A stretch of DNA of 64,000 bases from a virus (Duplodnaviria; Caudoviricetes), in the IMG/VR virus record IMGVR_UViG_3300022377_000098, positions 1 to 64,000 of that record; one strand, given 5' to 3'. Of this stretch, positions 14,276 to 58,958 are shown piece by piece. The notes under the pieces are model-generated. The model was not told where the DNA came from and made no database searches. It saw only the letters and a program-made list of their open reading frames with translations. The translations under genes were made by a program, and so were the position numbers. Position 1 is the first letter of the stretch, and each line of letters begins with the position of its first letter.

Positions 14276-14894
14276 CTTGCTTTTCAGCAGTAGCTTTCAT
14301 GTTTTTGAGTGCCATTAACTTTAATTTGGAAATATAACAGCGTGACACCCCGAACTGTTTTGCAATCTCCTCCTGCGTAAATCCATAAAAGAAATCTAAA
14401 ACAATTACTTGGCGTTGCTTTTCTGGAATGGCAGCAAGTAATGATTGAAGATATATCCGTTTATCACTGTTTACATAAACTTCTTCTGATTCAGTGTCAG
14501 GCAAAATATTTTCGAGCGTACCATTACCATCTTGCAGCGTCGACACATCTAAACTCGTACAATGATTTAACGTTCGCGGCGCAAGGTTTCCTCTAATTCC
14601 TATCAGCTCATTAAAGCAATTCTTTAATGGAAGATTCAAGAACGTTGTAAACTTCCAACTGTTTTCTGGATTGAAATCTCTTATAGCATCTAGCAACGCG
14701 AAAAATGCTGCTTGATTACAATCGTCCAATTCAACGCCACAACTTGCACATTGGTTTTTGTGAGAGTTAAAAAAAAAGTTTGCTTTCTGAAAACAAATTT
14801 TCTTCACGTTTTCCCACAGTTCCGCAATCGCTTCTTTATCTCCGCCTTTGGCTTTTATCGCCAGTTCTTCGTTTGTCATATTTAAAATCACCAT
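14259..14894 (-). CDS. Sigma-70-like late transcription factor
   Basis: MTNEELA..AK.GD..A..ELW, region 2 (DAIRDF....KFTT) and region 4 HTH (TQEEIA..FGVSR..IS). Confidence 0.8.
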   Translation of the reverse strand: MVILNMTNEELAIKAKGGDKEAIAELWENVKKICFQKANFFFNSHKNQCASCGVELDDCNQAAFFALLDAIRDFNPENSWKFTTFLNLPLKNCFNELIGIRGNLAPRTLNHCTSLDVSTLQDGNGTLENILPDTESEEVYVNSDKRIYLQSLLAAIPEKQRQVIVLDFFYGFTQEEIAKQFGVSRCYISKLKLMALKNMKATAEKQGATSG

Positions 14895-15213: not shown

Positions 15214-15289
15214 TGGTACGCCATCGGGGACTCGAACCCCGGCTTTCCGAATTTAGAGTTCGGCGCTCTCCCAACTAAGTTAATGACGC
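15214..15289 (-). tRNA. Amber suppressor tRNA (anticodon CUA), tRNA-Lys-like body
   Basis: GCGTCAT TA ACTT AGTTGGGA GAGC G CCGAA CTCTAAA TTCGG AAAGC CGGGG TTCGAGT CCCCG ATGGCGT A CCA; full 76-nt cloverleaf with encoded CCA. Confidence 0.92.
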
Positions 15290-21143: not shown

Positions 21144-21353
21144 TATAAAAAGTACAACTTAACTTTTCATCAGCATCTTTGGGGAAAGGTCTTAGAAGCT
21201 GTTTCTCGTAATAAGCTTTTATTTTATTAATATAATAAACAGATAAAATTTGCAACGACATAAAAGCACATTTGCACATATAAACAATAATCAACTACAA
21301 CGTTCTGTAACATTTTGTTGAAATTAAATCAATTTCATGGAGGGATTGCTAAA

Positions 21354-29416: not shown

Positions 29417-31813
29417 TTAATTCCACCCCGTCATAACGCCACCATTAAAGTTTATTGTTACGGTACCGCCATCAGATTTTGTCAGTGGCCCGATTGAGCC
29501 ATTCCAGCCATTTGTACCGTTAATCGTAAGCCCACTACAATCTACTGTGCCACTCGTGGCAATCAATCCGTTTGCGTGCAGTTCATTCGCTTTCAGCGCG
29601 CCCATGATTACCTGTGCATAGCTGCCACTGTTACTAAAATATGTGCCATGCCCGCTTGTGGGCTGAAAGCACATATCATATGTGCCCGTTTCAGGGTTGC
29701 TGCTCACGCCCAAATGTCCCAGCTTAGAGCCGTTATAGTAAAAGTCAAATCCGTCACCAGTAAACTGTACGGATTGGCTTGAACCGTCCTTGTGGTTGAA
29801 CGCGTACACAATGGCATCTGAACTCTGCGTAATCGCTGTGCTAACAACCGAATTAACTTCTGTCCTCGATACCTTGCTGCTGATTTCATCCGCCTGCTGT
29901 GTAATCTGCGACTGCAAACCGCCCACCTTGTCATTGACGGATGACGTGATAGAGTCGGCAGTCATTTTTATTTCTGCGTTGGTTTTCGTTTCGGAGTTCG
30001 TCACAGACAAATCAATCGTGTTGTACAGTTGCTTAATGTCGCTCATTTCGTCACCGTGTGACACCGTGCTTTCCAGCCCGTCAGCAAGCTTCTGAATTTT
30101 GATGCGCAGTTCTTCAGATTTCGTGTTCAGCGCTTGTAATTCATCCCACAGCTTTTCGGATTCAGAATAAAAATCGGAGGAATTTTCGGCCTGCGACTTT
30201 GCTTCACAGGAGATTGCTTCGGCAGAGTTCAGCTTATAAGTCAGATTGGTAATGACTGACTTGCGTCCCTCAATGTCCACAATGTCCCCCGCTTCCAGTG
30301 CAGGGTTGCTGTAAATCGTTGCGCTGTATGGCGTAATGGTGTTGCCTATCAGGTGTGGAGCTATATTGTCCACAATCTGCTGCACATTTGCCACATCACG
30401 GTGCTGCCGGACTGTTACCAGTCTGCCGGGTAAATCCGAAAAATCAGCAGACGTCAGCAGCTTGCCTTTGTACTCAATCTTTGCCGCATCAATTCCAGCA
30501 AAGCAACTATCCGACTGCAAGCGTGCAATGTCGTTATACAACACATCTACCAGCGCATTTATGCACGTCCATGCGTTTGTGCCGCTTTCCTTGTCCGTCT
30601 TTTTTGTGATATATCCTAAGTCAGCGGTTAAGTCCGCTTCTTCCTGTGCCATGCTTGACTGCGCAGTTTCGTAATAACTGGTAATGTACTTTGTCAATCC
30701 GTCTGGCAAGTCCTGCTTTGGCTCAAATGCGGCCGTTGCAACAGTTTTCGCACTGTCCTTTAGGTATGCAATGCAGGACTTCACATCTGAATCATACTGT
30801 TTTGCGCTGTCCACAAAGGTTTTACGCTCCGCGTCCGTGGGATTGTATGTACCGCCGTACCGGCTGCAATAGTTTTGCAGTTCCACGCACTGCGATTTGA
30901 TTCCCGCCAGTCGCGCAGGTACATCCGTATCCTTGCTTTTGATGGCGGAGTTGATGTTGACCGCCCATTCGTCGCAAATAACCTGTTCATATATTGCAGC
31001 TTGCAGTAGCTTATTGTCAGAATCTTTCAGGGTAATTACATACCCATCGTTGCCGGACTTCGCGTCAACATTTTTACTGTCAATCTTAACGCCGGTCACG
31101 GTAATATTGTCTTTTGCAGGCTCATACTTCTGGTAACTGCTGATATTGTACGGTGCGGTTGAATAGTCAAACCACTTGAATTCAAGTTCTCCGTCCGCAT
31201 TGCATTGCGCATAACATCCTGCCAACTGTGCAATGTTCGCAATCACATCGTGATATGTGGAAGATGAATACTGCGGGTCTCTGAAAATCTGATAATCACT
31301 ATTATGAAAAGTTTTAGTTTTCAGTGAAATTCCGCACTTGTCACAAACCTGCTGTGCAAGGTTTCCCAATGTGACCGGATAAGTAACATCCATGTCAACT
31401 TTGCTGTCTGACTTAGAGAGATTTCCATATGCAGAAACCGTTATTGTATTGCGACCCTTGTAGTCATATGCGTTGTATACACCTTGCTTCACCCATTCTA
31501 CCGTGTCGCCGGTATAATCGCGCTTGACAACCATGCCAATGTACACGGTAATGCTTGCTTTGCAGAAATCGCACTGCGTAAACTTTCCGTCAAAGTTATT
31601 CAGCATGATTGTACATAAGTCTGTAATCGCGGAGCCTACTGTATAATCAGACTTTGAAGAAACTCCGCTATCAATGGTTACACTGCCTTGCATGATGTCT
31701 GCATCTTTTAGCGGGAATTCTGTTCCGTTTGCCAACTTCACATCTGCTTTGAAGTGGAATTCTCTGCCATTTAGCAGAACAAATTTCTAAAAATCATCCG
31801 ATACTGGTTTCAA
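29417..31813 (-). CDS. Minor tail / baseplate hub protein (1 in-frame TAG at codon 9)
   Basis: TTG start with AAGGTGG RBS; MKPVSDDF*KFVLLNGREFHFKADVKLANG continues into track ORF 29417..31741. Confidence 0.75.
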
Positions 31814-31826
31814 TCTATCGCCACCT

Positions 31827-32204
31827 TTACACTTCGACAAAGTCAAATTTTATGTTTGAAATCATGGACTGGCTAAACCGCCCATTTTGCTTCACAAAAT
31901 AATTGACTGGCGCGCTTCTGTCACCCACATAAAATGTTGCTGTGCGGTATCCTCCAAGCCTTATGTCCGGATATGTCAGCAGGAATGTTTCTGGCTGAAC
32001 GTGCTGTAACAGCACAGATGCTCTTGCTTCCGTCATAGGAGCCCATGTGCAAGTAAGCTTCACCTACTGTGCCACTCTATCTTTGTGCATTAACCCCTAC
32101 TGGTCGCGCCCTGCTTCTGAATCTGATATGTCTTGCAATGCCCATTCCATGGACTGCGGGGTTTCAATGGTGTTTCCGTTTACCATCAATGTTGACTGTG
32201 CCAT
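31827..32204 (-). CDS. Distal-tail-type (DUF6711-like) protein (in-frame TAG at codons 36 and 47)
   Basis: W.LQDISDSEAGRDQ*GLMHKDRVAQ*VKLTCTW ... TFYVGDRSAP; one continuous conserved domain across the TAGs at 32097-32099 and 32064-32066. Confidence 0.85.
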
Positions 32205-32634: not shown

Positions 32635-35600
32635 TTAATGAGTTGGAACGTAACGTCTACTATCGATTGCTTTGTAATTTTGAGTTGAATCGTAAATGCT
32701 CTTGCCGTCAAGGTCTGCTGTAACATGAAGTTGAATTGGTTTTCCGCTGTTACTTTGCAGAATTGCAAGGATTGCGCCAACCTGATTTACAAGTTCATTC
32801 TGATTGGATGAATTTGCTGAATTGCCATTTGTCTGCTGTTCAGCAATGCCCTGTGCAATCTCTGCATAGGACTCTTTACGCATTGGTAAAGCGGCTTCTT
32901 TTCCTTTTTCACCTATGCCTATCAGCGTAGGTGCGTCATAGATGCCTCCATTTGCGTTCCAACCGCCCCAATCGATGTTTCCGATACCTTTTGCGTATCC
33001 GTGTCCTTGTCCCCACACGCCGTCAGGAGAACCATAACGCGCCCATGTGTAACGGATGGACGCGAGGATGTTTGATAACGGGTCAAGAATGTTCGTGTTG
33101 TATCCGGGCAAAGCGTAAGTCGAAAATGTTTCAGGGATTAATTGCATCAAGCCTTTAGACGGATGCCCAGCGTAATAATTTACGTCATGCAGGTCTGACG
33201 GGTCGACCTGCCCACTGGATTCAGTGTTCATCTGTGCCAGCAGCAAATCCACATTGTGCGTGGAATAATGTCCAGTCATCATAAGCGCCTTAGATGCAAG
33301 GCTTCTCCACTGTTCAACTCCAGAGCCAACATTTGCAACCGCACTCATTGCAACTTCCATTGCACTCTTGAAGTTCGGAATGCCATAGCCAAGAATGTTT
33401 CCAGAGTTTGAATTGCGATGCTTTCTGAATACACCCTCTGCGCCATCGCTTCCACTTGTGTTGCCCTCAATCGTATTTACAAGACCGCTTGCAATGCTCT
33501 CAACGATGCCGATATGGTCGGCGGTACCGTTCTTGTCCCAATCATAGAAAATCAAATCGCCGCGTGCAGGATTGTTAGTCCAGCGGTTGGCTGACTTGAA
33601 ATGGCTCATGGAATCCTCGCAGGAAGCAGATAGATATTCATCCACTCCCGCACGTTTCAAACACCAAGACACGAACATATCGCACCAAGCGGCACCGTTC
33701 ATTCCGAAGTCGCGCCCAAACTTTGTGAAGTCTGCATGACCGGCATTGGCTGCTTTATCGTCCAGACTGCTGTTTGAACCTTTTTCGAGATAGCCCAATT
33801 CCGATTCTGCAATCTTTAGGAATGCTTCCACGGTGCCGTTTCCGGGTGCTGTAAACTCTGCGAGTTGCTTTTTGATGAAGTCAACGGAATGACTTGTCAA
33901 GAACTGTACTGTGCTCTTTTCCATCTCGTTCCATGGGAAGTTAATGGATTGCATAGCCGTGTTTTTGTCTATAGCGGCGTGTAAGAGCATTTCGGGTTTG
34001 TCTAGGTAATTCCATATGTTTGTAGAAAAAGTGTCTAGAACGGCCTTAGAAGTGCCGAAAAAGTCGCCTATACCGTTCGCATAGTGTGGGAACATCTGCT
34101 TTGTCTGTTTTGCAGGCAGTACAGACGAACCGGCAGGCAAATCAGGAATCAGCACATTGCGCCCTTGCGGAATAAATGCGTGACCGTTTGGGAGCTGAAC
34201 CATTTCGCGATAAGTAGAGCCGGATTGGTCGTTGACAAGTGCTGCTCCGCCCGGATGATGCCCTGAACCATAGGCATAGTGTTTGATGCTGATTGGCTTT
34301 ACAGTTGCTTTAGAACCGACCGCAGACAGCACAGAGTTGATGCCCGCCACTACACCATTAATTGCGCCACCAATTTTATCAGCAACATTGTTGTTGATGG
34401 CTTTGGAATGCTGATTCACAATGTTGTCAGAATCGCTCATGTAAATCTGTGCCGACTGTTTCACTTTACTGAAATAAGTACTTGCATCAGATGAAATTGC
34501 TTTGAATTTACCGGAAGCATTGCTGTACATGCTGGAAGCTTTGGAACTCACATCACGTTCAGCAGACGCAAAGTTGCTCTGTTCAAAAGACTTTGCAGCA
34601 GAGAAATTTGCATTTGCACTTTTGGAAATCCCACTGAACTTTCCATCAATGAATGTGCTAATCCCATTCCACTTTGTGTTTGTGTCTGTCTGGATAGTGG
34701 CAGATGTATCAGAAACATTTGCACTGATTCCTTTCAGAAGCGTAGGCACAGAATTGTTCAGGCTTGCAGAGATTTCCTGATACTTTTTTGCGGTATAGTC
34801 TGTTTCGTCTGAAACAATTTTCTTGCGGGTGTCGGCAGAAGTGCGAAGATTGTCTGTAATCTGCTTAACCTTTGCACCGGATTCTCCCAAAATGCTGGAA
34901 TCGGTCTTTCCATTAACATTGAACACATTAGCAATAACTGTGCTTCCACTTTCGCCAGACGTTTTAGAATTTTCCACAATTCCCTTTGCGAGAGCGGAAA
35001 ACGTGCTGCTGTTCAATGGTAAAATAGCTTCGGAACCGGCCTCACCGACAACAGATAAAATTGGAGATGTTGTAATGCCACCCCTTGCTGAAAATGCAAC
35101 ACCAAGCAATTTAAGGATTTTGGGTATTGCCCCACTTATTAATCCTGCTCCACCAAGAGCGCCAGCTAAATCAGAACCGGCTTTTGGCGGGTTTGTCTTT
35201 TGTATGGCTGCAGTCTGCTTTCCAGCCGAGTTCCACGCTTGACTAAACCAGTTTCCCACACTTTGCAGTGCTTTCCCAATGTTCTGAAATACAGTTGAAA
35301 AAGCAGTAAGCTGATACTGACAAGTCTTTTGCGTGTTGGTCTGCAGATTTGTTCCAAACTTTGCAAAATCGTCTGATATGCCTTTCAGCTTTGCGTTAAC
35401 CCGGTTGTGAGTTTCTCCGAGATAATATGATGCACTTGTGAGCACAGCTAACCATGTTGTTTTTGCCAAAGTCGGTATGCTTTTTGCGATATCCTGAAAA
35501 CTCTGATTTGCGCCTTTTGAAAAGGCACTTACCTTATTGCCTGTTTGAGAATTGAGTTTTGATGACGTTTGAGAAAGTACGCTTTGCCACATTGCACTTG

Positions 35601-37749
35601 TAGCAGCAGTGACAGTACTTTCCATTCCACTAAATATCGATTCTGAATTTGCACTAAATCCAGATAACTTTTTTTGTGCTGACTGTGACTTTAGGCTCGT
35701 TTCAGAGTCAATATGGCTCCACGACTGCGCCCATGATGCTGCCATTGCAGTACCTGCCGCTCCAAATGAAACCTGCATATTGGTTGATAGAGAATTTACT
35801 TTTTCTTCTACAGGCTCAAATGATGGCAGAAATAAAGAAGAATCGAGCGCTGGAATTACTGCCGGCTGTACTTCTGGAGCGGAAATTGGCTGCTGATACA
35901 AAGCTTTACCATATAGAAAATAATCAAGCACAACCGCAGGAGCGATCAGAGGTTCAAATACTGGTGCTGCTACAGGCTCCTGATACCTGCCTTTTGACTT
36001 CTGGTAATCTCCATCATCCAGAGGCGGCACATACACTGGAGGAATTTCAAGGCTAGGAACCGGAATCTGCTGAACTGCTTTTGCAACAGCTTCTGCTCCC
36101 TCTTTAACCTTTTGAGTAACGGTTTCAACGCTTTTCTTAGTTGCCTTTTCTTCCTTATCCCTTTTGTCGTCAATCTTGTCAAAAACACCTTTAATGTTCT
36201 TGAAAAGGTCGTTAAAATTCCAGTTTGACTTTGGAGTAGGAATTGTTTTGAACATTTTACTATAGTCAGGGTCACTACTCTTTTTACTGTCAGAATCAGA
36301 GGACTCTTTTTTATTCAGAACATTCAGTTCATCAAACCCCATAACCGTTCTCTGGAGTTCTTTTACTTTCTTCTTTGCCTTATCAGCACTGTCGCCTGTT
36401 TTGTCAAGTGAAGCAGCATAGTCAACATTCGTCTTTGTTGCAATAGTGACAGTCTTTTGCCCTGTAATCTGTGCAATGAAAATTGCAAGCTTATTAGCCG
36501 CTGCCGCAATCCCGTCTACAATATTAGTTATTGCCGGAGAAATTGCTTTCAATATTGCTAAAAGCGGTGCTGCAATCGCATTTTTTAGGTAGGTGAAACT
36601 GCTCATATACTTTGACAAAGTATCATTTGCGTCTTTATTACCTAGCGCAGCGTCTTTGAACCCTTCTGTAATACTGTTAAGTACGCCCTGAAACGCAGTG
36701 AATGCAATCATTCCAGTCATCATGTGCTTGATAATCGTTAGAGTGCTTTGGCCTGCGCCTTTTGCTTTGTTCCCCGCTCTTTCTGATTTATTACCAAACT
36801 TATCCATAGCAGAACCAGCTTCATTCGTAGTGGAAGCAATCTGCTCCATCTTCTCCGCAACTTTCTGCTGCTTTGCGGTTAGGCTGTTCATGGAATTTCC
36901 AGCCTTTAATACTCTGCTTTCCAGCTTTAAGTATTCCTCACTGCCAACGCCCTTTGAAGCGCCTGCTTCTTGTGCCTTTACTTTCAGATTTTGGTACGCA
37001 GTGGCGGCATTGTCAATCTGTGCAGCAAGTGACCGCAACTGTGCTTCAAGATTTGCAAATTGTGCGGCAGAATCACCAGAAATACCATTCATAGAGGATT
37101 TCAGACGTTCAATATACTGCGTCACTTCCTCAATGGCTTTTGTAGAATGGCTCGTGTTAACTTGCGCTTGCGTAGGCTGGCTCATAGCCTTTCTCAAATC
37201 AGAAACGTTCGGTTGCATAGAATGGTTTGCACTCACAGATTCACTTGCTTGACGCTGCAACGCAGACTGTGCAGCTTCGGTTGACATTTTATCAGTGCCA
37301 CCATTGACATATCTGTCTACGGCTTTTGCCGCTAAATCAGTAATGGAATTGTCAGAATCCGCCATAAATTTTTTAGCCTGCGCCGTCTTTTCAAGAGCAG
37401 CAGACAATTTTTCTGCTTGAATCTGTGAGCGTTGCATGGACACGTTTGCACGGTCAAGGCGCGCCTGATACATAGCCATGTTTGATTCTGCTTTTTTGGT
37501 GGCCTGCACATTTTTGTTTGTAACGTCTGCCCCCTCTTTTTCTGTATCATAGAACTTTTTAAGAGAAGCAAACGCTTTTGAAGATGATGCAATTTTGTCC
37601 ATTTCTGCCGTAAAAGATTTCAGTGCAGGAATTGACTTAGTTAATGATGATTGGAAAGACTCAATCTTAGCAATCAGTTTGTCTAATGCACTATTTGCTT
37701 TTGTGGCAGAAGCCTATATTTCAATGTCAAGGCTGTTATCTTCTCCCAT
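32635..37749 (-). CDS. Tape measure protein with CHAP-like and lytic transglycosylase-like C-terminal domains (in-frame TAG at codon 12)
   Basis: MGEDNSLDIEI*ASATKANSALDKL joins track ORF 32635..37602; WCDMFVSW/HIGIVE and ESSG..GLMQLIP.TF motifs. Confidence 0.88.
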
Positions 37750-38235: not shown

Positions 38236-38571
38236 TTACGCTGTTTTCTTCGGAGCCACGAGAAATGTCTTGCTCTTTGCAGACTTCCCGCCCTCGGTAA
38301 AAACCTCCATGAAAGGCTCTACCAGAGCACTGTAAATTTCATCCACTCCGAATTCTTCGATTGCCTTATCGGAAATTTCAACAGCTTCGGAATAGCTGAT
38401 ATTCGGGTGGAACTTACCAAGCCCGCAGTAAAACAGTTTGTCGGCAGAAGTGTAGATTTTGTCCTACAGGTCGGAAACATTGCCGCCGATGCTCTCAAAC
38501 TTACGAACAGAAGCGCGGTCATAGAACAGTTTGTAGGTCTTTTCACCCACATTTACATCAAAAGAATTCAT
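38236..38571 (-). CDS. Tail assembly chaperone (in-frame TAG at codon 36)
   Basis: GGAGG RBS; MNSFDVNVGEKTYKLFYDRASVRKFESIGGNVSDL*DKIYTSADKLFYCGL; missing from the ORF track because of the TAG at 38464-38466. Confidence 0.8.
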
Positions 38572-38613: not shown

Positions 38614-39051
38614 TTAAACAGTAGCAATCATTGTGCTTGTGTCTGCTACATGGTCGTGACTGGAAACGTTGACTGCCAGAGAGCACTTGCCTGCCTGCCC
38701 AGCAGAATAACCACTAATCCATGTTGCACCGGTTCCGACAAAGTGTTCGCCGCTGCCATCCTGATAGACAATGAGAAAATCCTTTGGAATTTTCAAACTT
38801 ACATATCCGCTTACAGCCGTATAGTTTGCTTCGGTGTGGTTGTACTCGAAATCATATGTAGGCGTGTCGGGACGGTCGGAAACGTACTGCTTGTATTCAC
38901 TGTCCAATGTGGTAACTTCCAGTTTGTTAGGAGTGCCACCGGTGTCAGGAGTCTTAACAACGGATACCAGCTTTTCATACTAGCCAGCATCGTTCTTTTT
39001 CATCAGTTTAATGCCAATATCAGTAAGTGCAATAACATTTGCATCAGCCAT
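38614..39051 (-). CDS. Major tail protein (in-frame TAG at codon 24)
   Basis: GGAGG RBS; MKKNDAG*YEKLVSVVKTPDTGGTPNKLEVTTLD; TAG at 38980-38982. Confidence 0.85.
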
Positions 39052-39068: not shown

Positions 39069-39467
39069 TTACGAATAGATTTTGTTTCGGTAAGCGTCAT
39101 ACCGGCATGAATACCGCATAACGTACCTATAAATTGTCGTGTCTGAAACGTTCTGCATTGTGCCGGAAAACTCGCACTTCATGTGCAAGTCATTTTCCAG
39201 AGAATCAGCAATAGCAGAACGGATTTTCATAGCTGTGGTTTCAGCAGTGCCGCCTTTAGTGTAAATCTCAATTTGGCAGGTAAATGAATACTTGCGTTCT
39301 CCATAATCAAGCGTGTGCTCAATTTCAGGGAAGTCAACATTCTGCACTGTGACATACGGGAATTGTGTGGACTGATTCTGAAAAGGCTTTACAACCAGTG
39401 CAGCAGGACATACAGAAAGTACCGCTTTCTTGACATATGTATAAACTGCATTTGTAAGGTCAACCAT
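39069..39467 (-). CDS. Tail terminator protein
   Basis: 132 aa; FPYVTV, QIEIY motifs; synteny. Confidence 0.7.
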   Translation of the reverse strand: MVDLTNAVYTYVKKAVLSVCPAALVVKPFQNQSTQFPYVTVQNVDFPEIEHTLDYGERKYSFTCQIEIYTKGGTAETTAMKIRSAIADSLENDLHMKCEFSGTMQNVSDTTIYRYVMRYSCRYDAYRNKIYS

Positions 39468-39951
39468 TCACAATCACTCTCAATTCCTTATCGGTTAGTT
39501 CTTTTGCACGTTGTTTCAAATACTGTGCCGTCTTGTAAACAAAAGCGTTAGCAGGTTGTCCTTGCGTCCAACGTAGTTTCTGCGCCTTTTCATCAAAGTA
39601 CCACCATCCGGCAGTGCCATGACTGTTTGAATCATACACCCATCCGGGAGCAGGATTAGGATGTGGACTGGTTGCGCCTTTAATCCCGGTTCCATACTCA
39701 ACAAAGATAGCGTAGTCTGAACCAACCGAAATTCTTCCAGTACAGGTTGATTCATCAAACGTGCTGGAAATGCTGTCTGACAGTTCCCCCGTAGAGCGTT
39801 TGACGACTGACTTCATGTAATCGCGCCCCTCTTGCGTAAGCTGCGAAATCACGCTTGCAAGGGTAGAATCAACCTTGGAATTCAGACTTTCCAGTTGCTT
39901 TTTTGCTTCTTCCACAGACTATGGAGAAAGTGCATCAAAAGAGATTTTCAT
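39460..39951 (-). CDS. HK97 gp10-like neck protein (in-frame TAG at codon 11)
   Basis: MKISFDALSP*SVEEAKKQL; TGELSDSI, YAIFVEYGTG motifs; TAG at 39919-39921. Confidence 0.85.
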
Positions 39952-40352
39952 GTTTCTGTGCCTGCGACCTTTTTAATGTACACAGCATACTGCCAACCAG
40001 TGAAAATTACCTGTTTGACTGTATAGTTGTTGTTCATCGGGTGCTCTGCATCATCGTCCCGCAAGTTTCCGTTTGGTGTGACTCCGTACCATGCCGCTTC
40101 AAATTCCTCTGGAGAATACCCCTCAACATCAAACGGTGTGAACACGCATTTCTGCATTTTGGAAACGTCAGCGCCGTACTCTTGAATGTCTGCCGTATCG
40201 GTTATTGGCTGCACGTTCACATGGAATTCGGCAGGTTCGTCATAGCAGGAAATCATGTTCCCTGTTTCGAGCCCATTTTCGTCTTTTTCAGGAACAGGCG
40301 GCAGTTTCTTCGCAAACCAGATTGACTTTTTATCTTTGTTCAGGCTTCTCAT
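39948..40352 (-). CDS. Head closure protein
   Basis: MRSLNKDKK..W, DENG.ETG....Y..P motifs. Confidence 0.75.
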   Translation of the reverse strand: MRSLNKDKKSIWFAKKLPPVPEKDENGLETGNMISCYDEPAEFHVNVQPITDTADIQEYGADVSKMQKCVFTPFDVEGYSPEEFEAAWYGVTPNGNLRDDDAEHPMNNNYTVKQVIFTGWQYAVYIKKVAGTET

Positions 40353-40669
40353 GAAACCATCACCGCCATAGGAATGACTTCTTTCAGCAGGGAATCAGGA
40401 ATATCAGCATTTTCATAAGAGCGGTTGACTCCGTTCTCATTGTGAGCCGTTTCCCCCTCCGCTCCTTGCTTGTTATAAAGAAAAATTGCAATCTGAATTT
40501 GCAGTTCGTTATATTGGCTTTCCAGTGGAGCGTCAGGCGGTGACCGTCTGCGCTCTTTAATTCTCGACTCTGCCCGGTCAAGCATAAGGTTCAGCTTTTC
40601 ATCCTAGGAAGTGTCGATTACTGGAATATCAAGCCATACTTTCAGCTAATCAAGCTGTGTAGTAGTCAT
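40349..40669 (-). CDS. Head-tail connector (in-frame TAG at codons 8 and 22)
   Basis: MTTTQLD*LKVWLDIPVIDTS*DEKLNLMLDRA ... NKQGAEGET.H.ENGV.RSYE. Confidence 0.85.
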
Positions 40670-40674
40670 TGATA

Positions 40675-40830
40675 TTATCCTTTCCGCGTTACTCGTTTCT
40701 TCTCTGTGACGGCTTCTGCTACAGCGGGCTTAGAATCTGTATGCACCGGCTGTTTTACCGGCACATCTTCACCCGCCATATAAAACTTGTCACCATGTTT
40801 TACAATGTGGTCGAATTTCACAGCAATCAA
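40675..40830 (-). CDS. Small hypothetical virion-module protein
   Basis: 51 aa, H.VKH.G.FY.AGE.VP; overlaps the capsid stop codon. Confidence 0.5.
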   Translation of the reverse strand: MIAVKFDHIVKHGDKFYMAGEDVPVKQPVHTDSKPAVAEAVTEKKRVTRKG

Positions 40831-41906
40831 GCCACCTTTGCAACATAGACTTCGTCCATACGCTCATAGGACGGCGCAAGGATTTCGGAAGCGGTGGTAA
40901 TGGTCTGGTACGGCGCTTCTTTTGTGGTACTTACGGTGATGGTGATACCTGTGTTGAAGATAGCAAGCTGGTTGCCAGCCTGACGTGCAGAGCGTTCCTC
41001 CGGTGTCATGCCATACCACATAGTGCCAACGGAGCCGCCAGCGGGCAGGAAAGTAACATAACCATCCGGCATAAACGGATGTGCAGTGCCATCAATGCCC
41101 TTGTACATCTTATCGTAGACAATAATATCAATGCCGCACTTGATACGTAAGAACTGTGCAAGCAGATTATCATCCATGAAGATGTTTGCAGTAGCGTTCT
41201 GCGCCAGAATTGCAGACTTAATCTGTGCATTCTCCGGCAGATTATCAAACGTTGCCTGTGACATAATGGCAGTGGACAGCACTGTTCCGTTCTCTTTCAG
41301 AGCATTGCGCTTGATGGTACGAATGTCAGATAGCGGCTTAGAATTAGCCGTATCACTCCACAGGTTTGTGCCGGTCAAAGCAGTGTAGTGCTTTGCTTTC
41401 CATGTGCCGTCAGCATCATAGTTCATGGTGTAACTTGCACCATCTTTTCCAGTCAAATTGATAATGGGACTTCCGTCAACTGGTGCAAGCAGACTGAATG
41501 CCATAATTTCAGGCACTACCATAGCACCATCACGCAAAGTACCAGCATCATCAAAGATGCGGTTCAAAACGTCCTGCACAAACGGGTCGTTTGCATCACG
41601 ATTCTGCACTTCCATCAAATCCTGAATGTCCTTTTCTTTGACAATCATAGACTCACGGAAGAATGCCAGTTCCGTTTCAGAACGGCTCACACCTGCACGG
41701 TCGCGGAATGTCGGCTTTGCATCAAAGCTAGACAGATTGATTGCAACCGGAAGTCCCTTTGTGCCTTTCAGCCAAGACACAGTTAGCCCGGTTTTCTTTC
41801 GCGGTGCGAAGAAAGCACTGCCAAGATACGGGATTTCATTGGAATACGCAGTTGTCCAATCGTTTGCAACTGCATTTGCCGTAAAAATGTCCTAAAGTTC
41901 AGCCAT
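40827..41906 (-). CDS. Major capsid protein, lambda gpE-like (in-frame TAG at codon 5)
   Basis: AGGAGG RBS; MAEL*DIFTANAVANDW...IPYLG..FF..RKK.GL.VSWLKG; TAG at 41892-41894. Confidence 0.9.
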
Positions 41907-43033: not shown

Positions 43034-43420
43034 TCACGAATTTAAATAGTCTGCGATTTCAGACAAACTCTTGAAATATTTTCCACCATTTCGCTGAACC
43101 ATAAGGCCAACCCTATCAAGGGATTTATACTGTCCAATGCTGAACTTCAAATCTGGTTCATCAATAAAGGCGAATACGGTCTTTTCAGGGCGTTTGTTGC
43201 TATCGTCAACGACTTCTGCAATGCTGTAAACTCCCTGCATTCGTGGAGTGATAACGTACAAGCAAAAATCATCATTTGTGCGCTCCTGCAATTCCTACTG
43301 ATAGCATTCTTCTGTCCAGTCAGGTACAACCGGATTGAAATAATCAATCTACAGCATTGAAATCAGTTTTTTACGCCATTTGCTTTCTGCACAGGTGCCG
43401 CCTAAAAACACTTTCTACAT
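43034..43420 (-). CDS. Nucleoside 2-deoxyribosyltransferase-like protein (in-frame TAG at codons 2, 24 and 42)
   Basis: M*KVFLGGTCAESKWRKKLISML*IDYFNPVVPDWTEECYQ*ELQER..DFCLYVITP.M.GVYSIAEVVDDSNKRP. Confidence 0.85.
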
Positions 43421-45160: not shown

Positions 45161-45328
45161 TTATTTTATGTACCCACTCTGCATATTCCCACAACGCGGG
45201 CATTTGACTTCATAGTATCCGTTAAACTCACCCAGTTTTTTGTTGCACTTTCGGCACCGGGCTTCCTTTAGATTCGGTGTTGTTTGTTGGATTCGCAAGT
45301 TGTTTGCTGTCTGAACTTCCTTTAGCAT
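45161..45328 (-). CDS. Com-like zinc-ribbon regulator (55 aa)
   Basis: EARCRKCNKKLGEFNGYYEVKCPRCGNMQSGYIK identical to the prophage 1 copy; overlaps the portal 3' end. Confidence 0.75.
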   Translation of the reverse strand: MLKEVQTANNLRIQQTTPNLKEARCRKCNKKLGEFNGYYEVKCPRCGNMQSGYIK

Positions 45329-46829
45329 CTGATTCCTCATTTCCTGTAGGAATTGTGTTGTTTGTAGGCGCAAGCATAGCCGCCGCTTCATCCGTTTTCT
45401 GCTTCCAATATTCTTCTCCACGCTTTGCCATTTCGTTAGGCATTTCTGTAAAGTTGGAAAGCTCAATCGCATCTGTAGGAGTAAGAACTTTAGTCGCCAT
45501 CAAAGTTGAAAGTGTCTGCGACTTGTTAAGCATATTGTTTGTGCGGTTACGGACAAAGTTTACCTCAACATCCATCGGCTTGATGTCAATGTTGCTGAAT
45601 CGCTTTAAAATCTTGCAAACCATACGGAGCATTTGCTTTTCTGACTTCTTGAAATTTCTCTGCTTACACCGTGCTACAACTTCAAGGCTCTGGTATCCGT
45701 CACGCAGATAAACTGCATCCCCTGTGTCGCCAGTGCCGCCGCCCTTTGCCTTACGGTCAGGAATTCCGGTAATGGCGTACACATAGTCAATCAAAGTCTG
45801 TGCAAGCGTTTCAGCTTCGTTCTGATTGACGCCGGAATTTACATACTTCACGTCTGCTGGATTCTGCTGGTCGGAAGTCATTTCAAGAGCCATGCCTTGC
45901 TTCATCTTTTCAAAATCAGAAGTCCCACCATTCTCTTTTGCCGTTTTCAAGTGGCAGTTCACAAACACAAGCAGGCTGTTTACAAGCTGTTCAACACTGT
46001 TTACACGGTCACTGTGCAGCTTGTTCAACGCGTCAAGAATTGTCAACACGGATTCAAAGTCGCCCATACGGCACTGATTGTTTTTGTACTCCACAATTGG
46101 AACAGCACCAAGCAAATGTGCTTTTGGATATCCGCTTACAAGGTCTTTTGCAGTAATAGTTGTCTGTACTCCAGCGACTTCATACTGATATTGGTATGTG
46201 TTGTCATACACCGTGTACACTCTGCCGGTTGCGTTTCCGTAATCATCTAAAATATCAGAGAACGTAACGCCAAGTACAGGCTTTTTTACAGAATCAGTGG
46301 AATAAATGACGAATGTTGAACGTGCATCAAGTGTCGGAATCTCAAATGGTGCTTCATCCTCATCGCATTTTTCATCCACCGCAACAAGACGATATCCAAC
46401 GCCACAAACGGAAGCACTTTCGCCAACGTCCATGTCGTTTGCGGCTTTATCTTCGCTGTCCATATACTCATTTAGAGAGTCAATATCGCTGCGCTCTTTA
46501 TCGCTACCGCCTTTTGAAGTGTACTTGATTGGCTCGCCGAGGAAATAGCCGTTTGCGTTACGCACAATAGCCAGAGCGTTGTTAATCACGATGCGGTTAT
46601 TGATTTCCGGCCTAACCTTTTTTTCGCGGTAAATGATTGGCTGATTGCCTTTGTAGTAATTATACAGATATTCAATTTCCTGCTGATTATTTGCAAACTG
46701 TACCATAGCGCCGTTTACGATTCCCGGTATGGTTTCTTCACTGATTTCATTTGAAGTGCATAATTCCTATCTACCTAAAAATGTATGGTCTTCACCATAC
46801 CATGCAGTGGATAGAATATCTTCAATCAT
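45228..46829 (-). CDS. Portal protein, SPP1 gp6-like (in-frame TAG at codon 21)
   Basis: HTFLGR*ELCTSNEISEE..; YY.G.Q.I...NNRIV.N.A..IV....GYF.GEPI motif; TAG at 46767-46769. Confidence 0.9.
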
Positions 46830-47063: not shown

Positions 47064-47139
47064 TGGTGCGCCATCTGCGGCTCGAACGCAGGCCACCCGG
47101 ATTTAGAGTCCGGTGCTCTTCCAACTAAGTTAATGGCGC
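47064..47139 (-). tRNA. Amber suppressor tRNA (anticodon CUA), tRNA-Lys-like body
   Basis: GCGCCAT TA ACTT AGTTGGAA GAGC A CCGGA CTCTAAA TCCGG GTGGC CTGCG TTCGAGC CGCAG ATGGCGC A CCA; 76 nt. Confidence 0.93.
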
Positions 47140-47542: not shown

Positions 47543-47630
47543 TGGCGGAAGATAGAGGATTCGAACTCCTGTTGCGTTACCGCTTACCTGCTTTCAAGGC
47601 AGGCTCTTTAAACCGCTCGGACAATCTTCC
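47543..47630 (-). tRNA. tRNA-Ser (TGA)
   Basis: GGAAGATTGTCCGAGCGGTTTAAAGAG CCTGC CTTGAAA GCAGG, long variable arm, G73-CCA. Confidence 0.88.
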
Positions 47631-47681
47631 ACAAAGATACCCGCCATTGTGCACATTGTTAAGAGGTGAGGTGGGTTTGTT

Positions 47682-47757
47682 TGGATGCGGATGCAGGATT
47701 CGAACCTGCGACTTCTAACTCATGGGGCTAGCGAGCTGACCACTGCTCTAATCCGCA
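47682..47757 (-). tRNA. tRNA with CAT anticodon (Met/Ile2-type), atypical
   Basis: TGCGGAT..GAGC AGTGGTCA GCTC G CTAGC CCCATGA GTTAG..ATCCGCA T CCA; C at position 33. Confidence 0.75.
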
Positions 47758-47820: not shown

Positions 47821-48579
47821 TTATGCCGCTTTTGATTCTCTTTCAATTACAGGAAGTATTCCATGCTTTTTGAGCAACTCGTAAAGGAACAGTCGGCCTT
47901 TTTGTGTCCATCTGGTGTGAAGCACACTTCCGGGCGTTCCATCGTGATGGATTATCTGCTTTGTTGTACTCTTTGTATAGCCCTCATGCTGATATTTGCC
48001 GTACAAGAGCCATTGCCCACCCAATTTGTACTGTATGCCTTTATCATGGAGCAACTTATTCATACTTTCGCCACTCATGCCGTAATCTTTGGCAATTTGG
48101 GTGATGTTCACTGCATCCCTGCTGCTAAGTATTTCGTCAACATAGTTTGCCTTTGGCTCATACTCCGCGATTAACTGCTTTTGCTGTGTATTCTCTAAGC
48201 TAAGCGACTTTATGGTATCGTTAGCAATTTGCAAAGCGCGTGCCATAACCTTTTCAGGGCTGTTCCAGTTTTTCTCAATCTGCAAGAAATACTGTCGTGC
48301 TTGCTTTCCACGTTCCGTGCGCTGAATCATGCAGAGTTCTTTTGCCATGTCAATAGAGAGCGAATAGTCTGTGATTTCAGTCCATGGATTTTTAGGATTA
48401 TTGGTCGGACATTTTTGTCCGGGCAATTTTGCAAAGTCCACATTTTCTAAAAATCCATATTCGCACATTCTCGAAAACCAATGTGGAAAGTCTGTTTTGA
48501 CTTCAATGAACTTATGCAGTTCCCGTGCCGAAACTGCCGGTCTGTCGTTCTCATACTTGATTGGAATTAGTTCGTTCAT
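47821..48579 (-). CDS. Phage antirepressor (AntA/AntB + KilAC)
   Basis: VSARELH.F.EV.T.F..WF.RM.EYGF.E..DF; SIDMAKE.CMIQRTE.GK; ITQIAKDYGMS...WTQKGR.FLY. Confidence 0.88.
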   Translation of the reverse strand: MNELIPIKYENDRPAVSARELHKFIEVKTDFPHWFSRMCEYGFLENVDFAKLPGQKCPTNNPKNPWTEITDYSLSIDMAKELCMIQRTERGKQARQYFLQIEKNWNSPEKVMARALQIANDTIKSLSLENTQQKQLIAEYEPKANYVDEILSSRDAVNITQIAKDYGMSGESMNKLLHDKGIQYKLGGQWLLYGKYQHEGYTKSTTKQIIHHDGTPGSVLHTRWTQKGRLFLYELLKKHGILPVIERESKAA

Positions 48580-48988
48580 TTTATAGGTACCTCCAAAAAT
48601 AATGTTCACATGGAGGGAATGGCAGGGGTTTATCCTGCTCGTTCGTTATTCCCATAAATCTTCAAACCGTTTCGGTGCCACTTTCGGTTCATACGCCGTC
48701 TGTGGCATATTTAGCGGCACTGTTGCGAAATACAGTACCGCTTTTCTTTACCGGCTGCATCCGGTAGCTGTGCTTCATGCAGTTGCACAGGTTGTAATTG
48801 CCAATTCCCGGATTCCAACCGAGGTCTCCCAATCAAATGGCGCTCTCTCAACTAAGCTACATTGGCATATTAGACGGCGCAGAAAGGAGTGTAAAGAGCG
48901 CCGCCCCATAAGAAATTTCTTACTCTATTTATATTTTAACGTCTGAAAAGAAATTTCGTCACTCAAAACCTGTTACAGAATTATGAAC

Positions 48989-51727
48989 TCACAGAGGAAT
49001 TTGACTTCTATCTATCATCCGTATGCTGTAGGCAGTCAGATTCTTTACAAGGTTGCTCAACATGGACAGTGCATCCGGTGCATCATCATGCTTTGCTTTT
49101 CCGTTCGTGGTAAAACTGCACACGTTGCGCATGAAAGCCTTATATTCTCTGCTCTGCTTTGACGGTTGAAGGAAAACGAAGTGCTTTATGATGTAGTCCG
49201 ACTCTGTAACAATACGTGTGATTTTATTGGTAGATGAAAAGAACGTCCTGACGGATGTATTGCCGTTGCCTTGTGAAATCATGTCACTAACGCTTTCGGC
49301 ATAGTACCCGCCACCGTTGTTCACCTCAACATCAAGCCGTGATACTTTATTCCTGACGCATAGTTTTGCAACCATAGGCTTTGTGACATCTGGCAAACCG
49401 TTATTGAATACCAAATCGCGTATGTACACCGTATCGCCGTAAACATAGCCACAAATTGCTGCCACATAGTCTTTACCCTGATTTTTAGAGTCGCAGACCG
49501 CCACAATGGAATCAGGTTTTGCATCTGGCGGCAGTTTGCCATCAAAATAGTGGAAATCGTCCTCATGATAAAGCACGCCCTCACGCTCTATTGGCCTTTG
49601 CTGATAGATTGCACCCCATGAGATATCGTCCATATTGTCACGGATATCCTCAAAATAGTCCCGTGAGAATCCAACATCATAATCATAGTCAAAATTTGAA
49701 CTTCCATCCTCATTTAGTGCAGGGATACGCACGAACTTGCTATATCCGTCACCCTCATACCTTGATTCAAGCCGCCCCAGCGGGTCATATACAGACCAAC
49801 GAGTGCCAATAATCAACATCTTGCAGCCCATTTTCATACGGCTCATAAGGTCATTCGTGAACTTATACCATAGCGTGTCCATGCGGTCACGGTTCATTGC
49901 TTCCTCAATACCGGAAACCATATCATCCGCATACAGCAAGCTTTCACAACGTGTGGCGCCGGTCAAGCCGCCATCAATAGAGCGGCAAGTAAGCGTTTTA
50001 AACCGGTGCTGATTCCGTAAGTCGAGCGTTTCCTCTTTTGAGTTTGTGTTTACCAGCTTTGAACCCGGAAAGATGTCTTTGTAAGTGTATTCATCATCTT
50101 TAATAAGCTGCAGCACGCCAGTGTAGAAAGAATTTGTCAGCTTGTCTGCATAAGCGGATGCCAAGCAAGGCATATCAGGATGTTTTCCAATCACCCATGC
50201 CATGAAAAATATACCTAGAGTGGTATTGTGCGTAATGATGTAATCATCCGTCACATAAAGCTGTGAGGGGTCGTCAACCATAATGCACTGGCACTCTTGT
50301 TTTCCAACATATTCCACCCTGTCAATGAATTTTTTGAATACTTTCCGCTTAGGAGAAAACTTATTTGCTTTTCGTGGCAAGTAAAACGGATGTGCAGAGC
50401 TGTTGAATTCAATGACAATTCTGTACACCAACTTGCCAAATACTTTTTCCCCTGCTTGATTTCTGTAATAATTTCCGTGCTTTTCTTTTACGTTTGCTTT
50501 GCCACCTAAAGAACGCACCAATTCCAACATCCCATCTCTCAACATAGGAGAAACGGTTGTGTATTCTATATCATTTCCGTCTGTATAACCATCTGTATCA
50601 AGCAACCCGCGTAAAAGTTCCCACCGACTCTATGTATCCGCATATTGATAGTCTTGCGGGATAAACTTTGTTTCGCTGTTTTTGCCTATGAGTCCATAAT
50701 GTAAAAGTGCTTGTTGCGTTTTGGACTTTATCATATATCCGTGGCTGTCACGAACAGTGTTATCCACTTTGCAAATATTGTATCCATATTTTGAAGTCCT
50801 TTTGTGTAGCGTATCCCCCTCTGGAAGAAGGCTCTTTAACCTTTCAACGAGTTCCGGGTCTGCGCTTGTAATATCAAGGTTTCCACTAGTAAGGCTTCCA
50901 TCCCCAAGCAAAGCGCCAACAATATACGGATGAAGCATAAGATCTCTATGATGAAATTCAACAGGGCTTACGTAATCAATGGAATAGTTATTACGTTTGC
51001 CATGTTCAACTCGCAAGTTTTCCATCATATCTTGAAGCTGAATATCTCTGTACTTATTCCCTCTAACCCTATCATCACGGGTCTGTACGTGCCAAATGTG
51101 TTCTTTGCAACATTCCGTGGATGTTCCATCGTTAAACACAACACGGTATACGTCTTTTACGCCTTGAGGAAATACGCCGATAACATTGCATTCGTTTCCA
51201 GAGCCGGATATAATTCTATCTCCGACTTCTACATTACCCATCTTTTTGAATCCGGTTGGTGTCAACACCTTGCAATACAAAGGCTGTGCTTTGCCAGCGC
51301 CCGGAGGAACTGAAAGCCCAAACCGCTTTAGTTTCCCATCTTCTAAGTTTTGCAAGTCTTGCACGATTGGCCGCAGCACACGCTCACGCGGCGGGTAGAA
51401 TTTCTTGTCAGGTTCCCTGTTCCTCTCCATATAAATCAAGTAGGAGTGGAAGTCATACGGAGCTGCAAAAAGAAATGTCTACCAATATTTATCTGTGTAG
51501 TTCTGCATCTGCACCGGTTTTAGTCCCTTTGGATTGCTCAAAATGATGTTTAGCGCTTTTCGCAGCCCCTCATTCTCCAACAGTGCCGCAGGCATATTAT
51601 TTTCTTTGTGATAAATTGACCGCAACGCTTCTCGCTTCAATGCCAATTCAGGCGCATCCATATCGTACATATGATATTTGACGTCATGTACCAGTTGCTT
51701 CTTTGCCCTTGTATAATCTACTGCCAT
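48989..51727 (-). CDS. Terminase large subunit with intein (in-frame TAG at codons 83 and 366)
   Basis: Three track ORFs (51479..51814, 50630..51439, 48989..50605) are one frame separated only by TAG; PPGAGK/T Walker A, DDM.SG.EEA, HDDAPD nuclease motif. Confidence 0.9.
50225..51289 (-). mobile_element. Intein (355 aa) with LAGLIDADG homing endonuclease, class 3-type
   Basis: Inserted at GAGK|AQPL...ITHN|TT; blocks GALLGDG and RGLLDTDG; Ala1 plus W (EHIW), C (ECQCI), T (ITHN) triplet. Confidence 0.88.
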
Positions 51728-51776: not shown

Positions 51777-52019
51777 CTATTTCTTTCTTCCAAGTGGTTC
51801 ATCCAGTATATCAAATATTGAGCAGCCGAGTGCTTTTGCTACTTTCAGCAAGGATGATATTGACGGTTCACACACGCCGCACTCAATTTTTGCAAACCAT
51901 TGTCTTGTAACTCCGATTTTTTCAGCGGCTTCCCTGCCACTCATTCCAGCCTTTTCTCTAAGCTGTTTTACTTTAAGCCCTATCGCTTTGGACAAGAATT
52001 CGCTCCCTGCTTGTTTCAT
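51777..52019 (-). CDS. XRE-family HTH protein
   Basis: VKQLREKAGMS..EAAEKIGVTRQW..KIE.G..PS motif; ends in TAG. Confidence 0.8.
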   Translation of the reverse strand: MKQAGSEFLSKAIGLKVKQLREKAGMSGREAAEKIGVTRQWFAKIECGVCEPSISSLLKVAKALGCSIFDILDEPLGRKK

Positions 52020-52300
52020 AGTTGCAACTCCATTCTTCTTGAATTATATCATGTTAATTTGGAGTTGTCAACTAATAAGTGTTGCTTATTTTATGAATTT
52101 GAAACGGTTATATGAATATATATGCATAAATTTATGAATAATTGTATTTTGCGTTTGTTTTTTGAGGGTGGTGAGGGACGTCCTCCCGCCGAAAGAATAG
52201 GCTTGAAATAGGGGTACGCCCTGCATCTGTCAGTTGAATGTGTGCGTGCGACTGCTCTGTACCGGGCAAAAAAATAATTGAAAAAATATGCAAAAATCTA

Positions 52301-57920: not shown

Positions 57921-58456
57921 GTTTTATTCGCTTCCTCCTGCTCCTGTGCCTGCTGAATGTAATGATTCACAAATTCTGAAACTGGGCTGTCTTCCACATG
58001 CGGAAATATTCCCATCTCCTGCAATTTGTGCATAGCATCAATAATTGATTGTGATTCCAATTCCAATGCCTTTTTCAGCGTGGCAATCTTATCATCTTTA
58101 GCAGACTTTTCAAGAATCAATTTCACAATCTTGTCTTTGTCTGCTGGGTCGTACCCATTCTGAATAACGGACTCTTGGATCATGGAATTTGCTCTCCAAC
58201 CTTGATTCTCCTTTTGCAGCCGTTCCACCTCGGCAAGCAGTTCAGGAACATCGGTACGAGAATGGGCGATAAATTCAGCATCTTCATGTTTGAGCCAACA
58301 TTCACGACCTTTTACGTGTGATACAATCGGAGTATAACGAGCGCCACGTGCATTTTCATGTGAATTTACAATTTCATCTTCAAATGCAATCCATTCTCCT
58401 GCTGTTGCTTTTTCGCACCGTGCCTTGATTTCTTCCAGATATTTAGCGTCCATCAT
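57917..58456 (-). CDS. Hypothetical phage protein (ead/Ea22-like N-terminus)
   Basis: L.EIKARCE.AT.G.W...DAEFIAHSR.DVP.LL.EVERL. Confidence 0.65.
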   Translation of the reverse strand: MMDAKYLEEIKARCEKATAGEWIAFEDEIVNSHENARGARYTPIVSHVKGRECWLKHEDAEFIAHSRTDVPELLAEVERLQKENQGWRANSMIQESVIQNGYDPADKDKIVKLILEKSAKDDKIATLKKALELESQSIIDAMHKLQEMGIFPHVEDSPVSEFVNHYIQQAQEQEEANKT

Positions 58457-58758
58457 TGTCCCTCCTTTCTATAATTATCAATCGCTTTCTGTGCTGCTTC
58501 CTCAAAGTTTGGGAAAGGCTTTGAAAGCTGCACCAGCAAAATGATTTTATCTCCTGTGTCCGGCACAATTTGAACCAGTTTCATCTTTACTGTGCTTGCC
58601 AATGTTGCGACTATGCTTTCATCTGCGCAATTTGCCATCACCAGATAAATATGCATCCGGTTTTTACGCATAAAAGAAACCGATGTTTCGTTGAAAGCAT
58701 TTTTATCCATCACAGCCAAATATTGTCCGTTCCCTTTTGGACTCTTGGCCATTTTCAC
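58453..58758 (-). CDS. Hypothetical protein (may extend to an ATG-TAG start at 58860)
   Basis: Track ORF; the frame stays open upstream to ATG TAG at 58860-58855. Confidence 0.55.
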   Translation of the reverse strand: MKMAKSPKGNGQYLAVMDKNAFNETSVSFMRKNRMHIYLVMANCADESIVATLASTVKMKLVQIVPDTGDKIILLVQLSKPFPNFEEAAQKAIDNYRKEGQ

Positions 58759-58958
58759 GTCGAAAAGGATTACTGGATTTCCGAACTTTTTGAACCTTTT
58801 CTTCTTGCAAAACTCATAAGAAATATCCGTGTAATCATCCCCATAATTATTTTTCTACATATATATTGTATATAATTTGAACGGATTTCGTCACTGAAAA
58901 CCCATGAACAGGATGTGAAGTGGTAAAGAAAAGGCACCCATTTCTGAGTGCTAATTCA

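Follow-up and report, generated by a model that had tools for sequence, protein, structure and literature searches.

The window analysed here is a stretch of 64,000 nucleotides of viral DNA and covers bases 1-64000 of an IMG/VR provirus record. The full record is 72,269 bp long, and CheckV puts its completeness at 100%. It consists of two proviruses in tandem: element 1, at approximately 0.6-23.6 kb, and element 2, at approximately 25-72.3 kb. Element 1 is small, HK97-type and siphovirus-like (29-23682), and encodes an HK97 capsid, an S78 protease, a portal, TerL, a sigma-70-like gene, Rha, an HTH repressor and an integrase. Element 2 encodes an amidase, tail genes, a tape measure protein, a Phage_cap_E capsid, a DUF4355 scaffold, an SPP1 portal and TerL, and it also carries DnaB, RecT and RusA. 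A prophage in the cultured bacterium Caproicibacterium amylolyticum (CP060696.1), at about 1.039-1.089 Mb of its genome, matches element 2 at 82-98% nucleotide identity across ~47 kb; this genome has element 2 only and not element 1. When the region 44-52 kb was compared by blastn with cultured phage genomes, short antirepressor matches were the only ones found, with no close relative. The features of the window discussed below are given in Table 1.

Table 1. Positions of the tRNA genes, TAG-containing genes and neighbouring features in the window
Feature	Position	Strand	Remarks
Sigma-70-like gene, element 1	14259-14894		
Second tRNA(CUA), family copy in element 1	15214-15289	-	Between the Rha regulator gene and the sigma-70-like gene
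Integrase, element 1	21315-22568		
Tail hub or tail-associated protein	29417-31846	-	TAG 31787, near the N-terminus
Dit-like tail protein	31827-32204	-	TAG 32097, 32064 (codons 36, 47)
Tape measure protein (CHAP domain)	32635-37749	-	TAG 37714 (codon 12)
Putative tail assembly chaperone	38236-38571	-	TAG 38464 (codon 36)
Putative major tail protein	38614-39051	-	TAG 38980 (codon 24)
HK97 gp10-like protein	39460-39951	-	TAG 39919 (codon 11)
Head-tail connector	40349-40669	-	TAG 40646, 40604 (codons 8, 22)
Major capsid protein (Phage_cap_E)	40827-41906	-	TAG 41892 (codon 5); TAG kept in three relatives
Nucleoside 2-deoxyribosyltransferase-like (NDT) gene	43034-43420	-	TAG 43415, 43349, 43295 (codons 2, 24, 42)
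SPP1-type portal	45228-46829	-	TAG 46767 (codon 21); TAG kept in relatives
tRNA(CUA), predicted amber suppressor	47064-47139	-	Almost certainly from Clostridia tRNA-Lys(CUU); ARAGORN, Rfam, sequence, covariation, best cellular relatives
tRNA-Ser(UGA) and tRNA-Met(CAU)	47543-47757	-	Just upstream of the suppressor, same island; ARAGORN, Rfam
Antirepressor gene	47821-48609		Between TerL and the tRNA island
TerL	48989-51727	-	TAG 51479 (codon 83), TAG 50630 (codon 366, in intein); homology on both sides
LAGLIDADG intein in TerL	~50225-51289	-	~355 aa; contains TAG 50630
Small XRE-HTH gene	51778-52019	-	Ends in TAG just upstream of TerL
Sigma-70 promoter, perfect consensus	52045-52073	-	TTGACA, 17 nt, TATAAT; upstream of the XRE-HTH gene and late genes
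Early-region ORF	58453-58860	-	TAG 58855 (codon 2); TAT in one relative, TAG in C. amylolyticum

The gene at 47064-47139 encodes a 76-nt tRNA to which ARAGORN assigns the anticodon CTA. It scores 56.1 bits (E=2e-9) against the Rfam tRNA family RF00005, thus passing the gathering threshold of 29 bits. ARAGORN found five tRNAs in the window, two of them with the anticodon CTA, and all five are above the Rfam threshold. The cloverleaf is canonical. Read from the sequence, it has the acceptor stem GCGCCAU/AUGGCGC, the discriminator A73 and an encoded CCA, an anticodon stem of 5 bp with the loop CU-CUA-AA, the T loop UUCGAGC, a variable loop of 5 nt and a D loop of 8 nt, while the D stem contains A10.C25 and U13.G22. 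The cloverleaf with its anticodon loop, and likewise the acceptor stem and discriminator, are as a previous model-made reading of the sequence alone (hereafter the sequence-only reading) had described them. Minimum free energy folding of the single sequence did not reproduce the cloverleaf and gave weak z-scores. We relied on covariation and on a covariance model instead. U36, which belongs to the anticodons UUU and CUU of tRNA-Lys, is absent from the anticodon CUA, so the gene would be a derivative of tRNA-Lys and not a reader of Lys codons. The label “Pyl” that ARAGORN gives to the gene arises because the label reflects the anticodon alone. The anticodon is all that the suppressor has in common with tRNA-Pyl, from which it differs in its D loop, anticodon stem and variable loop. 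A tRNA-Pyl was therefore rejected on the basis of the canonical cloverleaf and of the best PylS match in C. amylolyticum, which reached 23 bits against a cut-off of 178 bits.

The suppressor gene is located in a tRNA island of element 2 (Met, Ser, CUA) between TerL and the portal gene. Both flanking genes are on the strand of the tRNA, so its placement inside the head operon, as first proposed, is correct. Relatives without the suppressor retain a Gly-Met-Ser tRNA island at the same spot. The tRNA-Met(CAU) of the island (47682-47757, minus strand) has U1 and a U discriminator, which is unusual for either an elongator or an initiator. At three related prophage loci (L015:3105-3185, L018:8366-8440 and L019:8362-8436) ARAGORN reports “tRNA-???” genes with four-base anticodons (actg, gacg and gaag); these are possibly frameshift-suppressor-like or aberrant tRNAs. 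Promoter and terminator scans around both tRNA(CUA) genes of the window returned weak sites only, at about the rate seen in shuffled sequences, and no strong dedicated promoter. A search of the whole 72,269-bp record for synthetase domains (class IIb and Ic, of the Lys/Asp/Asn or Glu/Gln type) and for a release factor found none. What had been stated for the window thus holds for the entire record. A separate observation concerns the small XRE-HTH gene. Its terminal TAG is AAG in two related IMG/VR contigs, L001 and L002, where the frame then continues for 30 Lys-rich codons; suppression would therefore lengthen this regulator.

The second tRNA(CUA), in element 1, shares the D stem with A10.C25 and U13.G22, a likeness between the two window suppressors that had already been pointed out. 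Element 1 has this tRNA yet contains no in-frame TAG. The G1.U72 wobble of the element 1 copy is also seen in several cellular tRNA-Lys(CUU) genes (L079, L081 and others). The covariation set comprised four distinct sequences: the two window copies, the copy in contig L001 (present also in L002) and the copy in the C. amylolyticum prophage. Among them, seven pairs show substitutions in both partners and 95% of cells were paired, a result that none of 500 shuffles matched. The sole unpaired position is A10.C25, which is unpaired in all four copies. No change is seen anywhere in the D arm (with A10.C25 and U13.G22), in A31-U39, in the loop CUCUAAA or in A73, and the anticodon arm as a whole is the same but for one compensated pair. 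Thus, covariation affects the other stems, whereas the D stem stays constant. The C. amylolyticum copy has an entirely different acceptor stem (GGGGAAU/AUUCCCC), which is not Lys-like, and a different T stem. Seven compensatory pairs together with invariant arms argue that the tRNA is under selection and is not a relic, and phage-encoded tRNA(CUA) very probably acts in functional amber suppression. The conserved D stem may tune the efficiency of suppression, as conjectured in the sequence-only reading.

The suppressor family is rare. It was found in the record of the window, in two IMG/VR contigs (L001 and L002) and in one cultured genome. Among 401 genomes of the host order, one carries the family and the other 400 were searched without finding a copy. 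Exact-pattern scans for the suppressor in GTDB representative genomes and in JGI metagenomes gave no match, and neither did a scan of IMG/VR for CUA tRNAs with the canonical Lys acceptor.

To place the suppressors among cellular tRNAs, a covariance model was built on the suppressors and run on cellular genomes. In a sample of 151 genomes from the class Clostridia, all 30 of the best cellular matches were tRNA-Lys, 29 with the anticodon CUU and one with UUU. These best 30 tRNA-Lys matches scored 86-91 bits and were 79-86% identical to 47064-47139 outside the anticodon. Many of them carry exactly the same acceptor stem and discriminator (GCGCCAU/AUGGCGC-A), in line with the acceptor type that had been given for tRNA-Lys of Firmicutes, and their anticodon loop, CUCUUAA, is a single substitution away from that of the suppressor, again as claimed. 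In the complete genome of C. amylolyticum, the two tRNA-Lys(CUU) genes scored 90.1 bits and tRNA-Lys(UUU) scored 80.7 bits, while the best non-Lys isotype reached 69.2 bits, ~21 bits below Lys(CUU); tRNA-Trp reached 58.8 bits, and tRNA-Gln was beneath 47.5 bits, the floor of the scores listed. In five Clostridia metagenome-assembled genomes (MAGs) with related capsid genes, tRNA-Lys(UUU) ranked first in four and fell 0.6 bits short of tRNA-Phe in the fifth; in these genomes, tRNA-Gln scored 42 bits against the suppressor model. The tRNA-Gln of the host has U1-A72 and G73, in agreement with what the sequence-only reading had stated for bacterial tRNA-Gln.

The suppressor shares with Clostridia tRNA-Lys(CUU) (e.g., C. 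amylolyticum 365514-365589) A73, A31-U39, the anticodon-loop residues C32 U33 C34 U35 and A37 A38, the D loop and the T loop. It differs by U36->A, G10->A, C13->U and U20->A or G, and by compensatory substitutions at the 30-40 pair and in the T stem. A10.C25 together with U13.G22, invariant in the suppressors, is missing from cellular tRNA-Lys. Both C. amylolyticum tRNA-Lys(CUU) genes (365514-365589 and 772210-772285) have an acceptor-stem mismatch, C4.A69. Because the top scores belong to tRNA-Lys(CUU) and the identity extends outside the anticodon, the suppressor is taken to be a tRNA-Lys(CUU) derivative, and on these comparisons it almost certainly descends from a tRNA-Lys(CUU) of Clostridia. 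The derivation from tRNA-Lys put forward earlier is thereby strongly supported, both by the 30 of 30 matches and by the 21-bit margin in C. amylolyticum. We also considered tRNA-Trp as the source, which has a similar anticodon arm and is one step away (CCA->CUA); it was rejected, as the tRNA-Trp of the host reaches no more than 57-60 bits and carries A1-U72 with G73.

Eighteen in-frame TAG codons were checked, in 13 otherwise open genes, mostly late ones, and 16 of the 18 lie within about the first 50 codons of the gene. All 14 sites that could be aligned with the C. amylolyticum prophage are TAG there too, and most are also TAG in L001 and L002. The reading frame ahead of the TAGs is likewise kept in three to four relatives at 82-99% identity, and read-through of the TAGs joins fragments of essential genes. 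In TerL, the TAG at 51479 is kept in L001, L002 and C. amylolyticum. The capsid gene begins with AGGAGG, 8 nt and ATG, followed by TAG at codon 5; the next in-frame ATG, GTG or TTG is at codon 43, while the match to Phage_cap_E already begins at residue 18. A purine stands 3' of the TAG at 15 of the 18 sites, compared with a background of 68%, an unconvincing excess. The intein of TerL directly follows the Walker A lysine (PPGAGK / AQPLYCKV ... ITHN / TTLG) and begins with Ala, and not with Cys or Ser. The TerL of C. amylolyticum, otherwise 93-99% identical, is without an intein.

Next, we considered which amino acid the suppressor would insert. In E. coli, Lys identity resides in the anticodon, above all U35, and in A73 (PMC9976931), which bears out the sequence-only reading on the use of U35 and A73 by LysRS. 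U36 is itself a LysRS determinant (PMC9976931). In addition, LysRS accepts C34 well and prefers A31-U39, while C31-G39 pushes a CUA tRNA toward GlnRS (PMC1483225). U35, C34, A73 and A31-U39 are all present in the suppressor and are invariant in the four copies. The host has a class II LysRS (679.8 bits).

The residues found at the TAG positions in homologous proteins were used as an additional source of evidence. For each of RusA, the NDT-like protein, the portal and the connector, 110-140 homologues were aligned; for the capsid, the column consisted of 31 distinct N-termini. K is the commonest residue in RusA (42%), at NDT codons 2 (73%) and 24 (48%) and at connector codon 8. The column of portal codon 21 has K in 42%, R in 21% and Q in 9%. 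Portal column 310, where L001 has TAG and both the window and L002 have AAG, is occupied by K in 78% of 120 homologues and by R in 16% of them. The columns that do not favour K are NDT codon 42 (E/R/Q), capsid codon 5 (S/R/T) and connector codon 22 (D/S/E). Summed over ten columns, the profile log-odds were +15.1 bits for K, +6.8 for R, +0.5 for Q and +0.3 for E; for the eight window sites alone, they were +9.9 for K and -0.2 for Q. As a control, sets of ten columns with a known query residue were drawn in 2000 trials, and the true residue was picked in at least 99% of them. The observed K-minus-Q difference of 14.6 bits falls inside the range of true K columns (13.4-39) as well as that of true R columns (5.3-19.6), and outside the ranges of true Q, E, S, T and D columns. 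True R sets always gave R, whereas the single best residue of the observed set was K. The codons that replace TAG in close relatives are mixed (AAG, CAG, TAT, GAT, CGT) and are uninformative alone. Most TAG sites lie in variable N-terminal stretches, which weakens inference from alignments. Taken with the identity elements, the columns make Lys the probable main residue inserted at UAG, and lysine is most likely what the UAGs of the capsid, portal, terminase and tail genes specify.

Charging of the suppressor could be inefficient or ambiguous, so that UAG would give Lys mixed with a little Gln or Arg, or would mainly terminate. The tRNA would then serve chiefly to limit the rate at which late proteins are made, as a weak gate, and would not bring about a clean reassignment. 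The loss of U36, as a LysRS determinant, should reduce the efficiency of LysRS, the TAGs cluster at tolerant N-terminal positions, and the K total of +15.1 bits is at the low end for true K columns. As for a mixture with Arg, the tRNA at 47064-47139 carries A20, and the profiles rank Arg second; against it, ArgRS of E. coli needs C35, which the suppressor does not have. Stoichiometric virion proteins such as the capsid, tape measure and portal need read-through, and TerL needs two such events. Furthermore, A73, A31-U39 and the anticodon arm were kept by selection across diverged copies. We therefore consider such leaky or mixed decoding unlikely.

Alternatively, the host GlnRS could charge the suppressor, despite its Lys-derived body, mostly with glutamine, in which case the phage would use the known TAG-to-Gln code (code 15). 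We rejected the argument that Gln is impossible because Firmicutes are without GlnRS: candidate host Clostridia encode it, and a true GlnRS was found in all six candidate host genomes, at 667-742 bits and above the family cut-off. Competition from GlnRS for the suppressor is therefore real. GlnRS recognises U35, and amber suppressors in E. coli are often glutaminylated (PMC9976931; Borges preprint); with A73->G, a Lys amber suppressor comes to insert Gln in part (PMC9976931). At Dit codon 47, Gln is also more frequent than any other residue, and NDT codons 42 and 45 encode Gln in close relatives. On the other hand, GlnRS relies on G73, U35 and G36 as well as on the acceptor stem and the 10-25 pair (PMC9976931), and nearly all of its determinants beyond C34 and U35 are missing here. 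Where the E. coli set has U1-A72, G2-C71, G73, a 10-25 pair, G36 and U38, the suppressor has G1-C72, C2-G71, A73, A10.C25, A36 and A38. The 10-25 pair is thus broken, and the conserved A10.C25 may exclude GlnRS. The retained A31-U39 favours LysRS over GlnRS. The TAG positions do not align best with Gln, which totals +0.5 bits versus +15.1 for K, and the K-minus-Q difference lies beyond the true Gln range. Glutamine as the main residue is accordingly improbable. Finally, it is very hard to believe that the tRNA is decayed and non-functional and that the TAG genes are pseudogenes or start after their TAGs, even though the automatic annotation of C. amylolyticum calls shortened genes beginning past the TAGs (portal, terminase) and a downstream start is conceivable for a few TAGs near the gene start, e.g., in the tape measure gene, given the cloverleaf kept intact by compensatory changes in four diverged copies, a capsid gene with no usable start between its TAG and the conserved domain, TerL TAGs with homology on either side, the conservation of TAGs and of the frame upstream of them in relatives, and a provirus rated as complete.

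We consider it likely that this locus is a functional, phage-borne gene for a Lys(CUU)-derived amber suppressor that is charged by LysRS and decodes ~18 UAGs, mostly in late genes, thereby gating virion proteins. The bearer would be a temperate siphovirus of Caproicibacterium-like Clostridia. The suppressor would have originated from tRNA-Lys(CUU) by U36->A together with G10->A and C13->U, both of which weaken the D stem. It would be transcribed with the tRNA island between TerL and the portal gene, in the late region, and then processed. A36-A37-A38 is a motif used by MiaA. The change U36->A creates this motif, so a modification of the i6A37 type is likely. The class II LysRS of the host would then charge the suppressor with Lys, using U35, C34, A73 and A31-U39, and the charged tRNA would put Lys at UAG in competition with RF1. 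In cells without the suppressor, very short peptides would be released from the late genes, while full-length virion proteins would be made in its presence. Since the UAGs come early in late genes, virion proteins would be made only with the suppressor present. More broadly, we lean toward the view that a lineage of temperate Clostridia phages has naturally reassigned UAG to Lys, that a UAG in the first few dozen codons locks the virion genes, that the altered D stem rejects GlnRS and/or boosts decoding against RF1, and that the copy in element 1 holds a key to the lock.

Phages recoded at TAG are known from the gut (crAss-like, Lak, Garnet and others; code 15), where a phage tRNA(CUA) operates in a host with the standard code (Borges et al. 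preprint; Peters et al., PMC9523058). The present phage resembles them in its tRNA(CUA), in the concentration of in-frame TAGs in structural and late genes and in the presumed charging by a host synthetase. A role in the timing of late expression was proposed for those phages too (Borges et al. preprint; PMC9523058). Only TAG-to-Gln and TGA-to-Trp have been seen in recoded phages whose code differs from that of the host, from which came the suggestion that GlnRS and TrpRS are the only synthetases open to co-option (Borges et al. preprint), and TAG-to-Gln in phages was validated by proteomics (PMC9523058). Unlike the code-15 phages, in which TAG is Gln, the suppressor described here has a tRNA-Lys(CUU) body and the TAG columns favour Lys. 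Moreover, while those are virulent phages recoded genome-wide, the present phage is a temperate Clostridia siphovirus of ~47 kb that has only ~18 TAGs, almost all of them close to the start of a gene.

In its Lys body, its CUA anticodon, U35 and A73, the suppressor is similar to the tRNA-Lys amber suppressors of E. coli (McClain et al. 1990 and Tamura et al. 1992, as described in PMC9976931). Those suppressors were laboratory constructs, according to the account in PMC9976931, whereas the present one occurs naturally, is carried by a phage and is under selection. Another comparison is offered by suppressors of the Hirsh type. The Hirsh suppressor is a tRNA-Trp with G24A, a D-arm mutation that reportedly enhances the decoding of stop codons. 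As in that case, the D stem here is altered from its cellular parent, and the alteration is strictly conserved. Unlike the Hirsh type, the anticodon here pairs with UAG itself, and an effect of the D stem on decoding or on the rejection of GlnRS is conjecture.

Phage suppressor tRNAs and the recoding of late genes are thus established; what would be new is the assignment of UAG to Lys, a residue that we infer from sequence. Full-text literature searches found no report of UAG being read as Lys in phages, and, to our knowledge, no NCBI genetic-code table assigns UAG to Lys. If this assignment is true, the range of natural stop-codon reassignments is widened, and LysRS is added to the synthetases that can be hijacked. 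The suppressor would also be of interest to genetic-code engineering, as a tRNA scaffold of natural origin already evolved to decode UAG and to avoid GlnRS. In prophages of this kind, gene callers and code predictors that test only Gln or Trp will cut genes short or translate them wrongly. Since a near-identical prophage resides in a cultured and fully sequenced isolate, C. amylolyticum, the claim is directly testable. A further TAG was noted in the record outside the window, at the end of an ORF at 71855-72256 (minus strand) with tandem VQPQPV(I/N)(T/P) repeats. This TAG is kept in C. amylolyticum, while the number of repeats differs between C. amylolyticum and the record.
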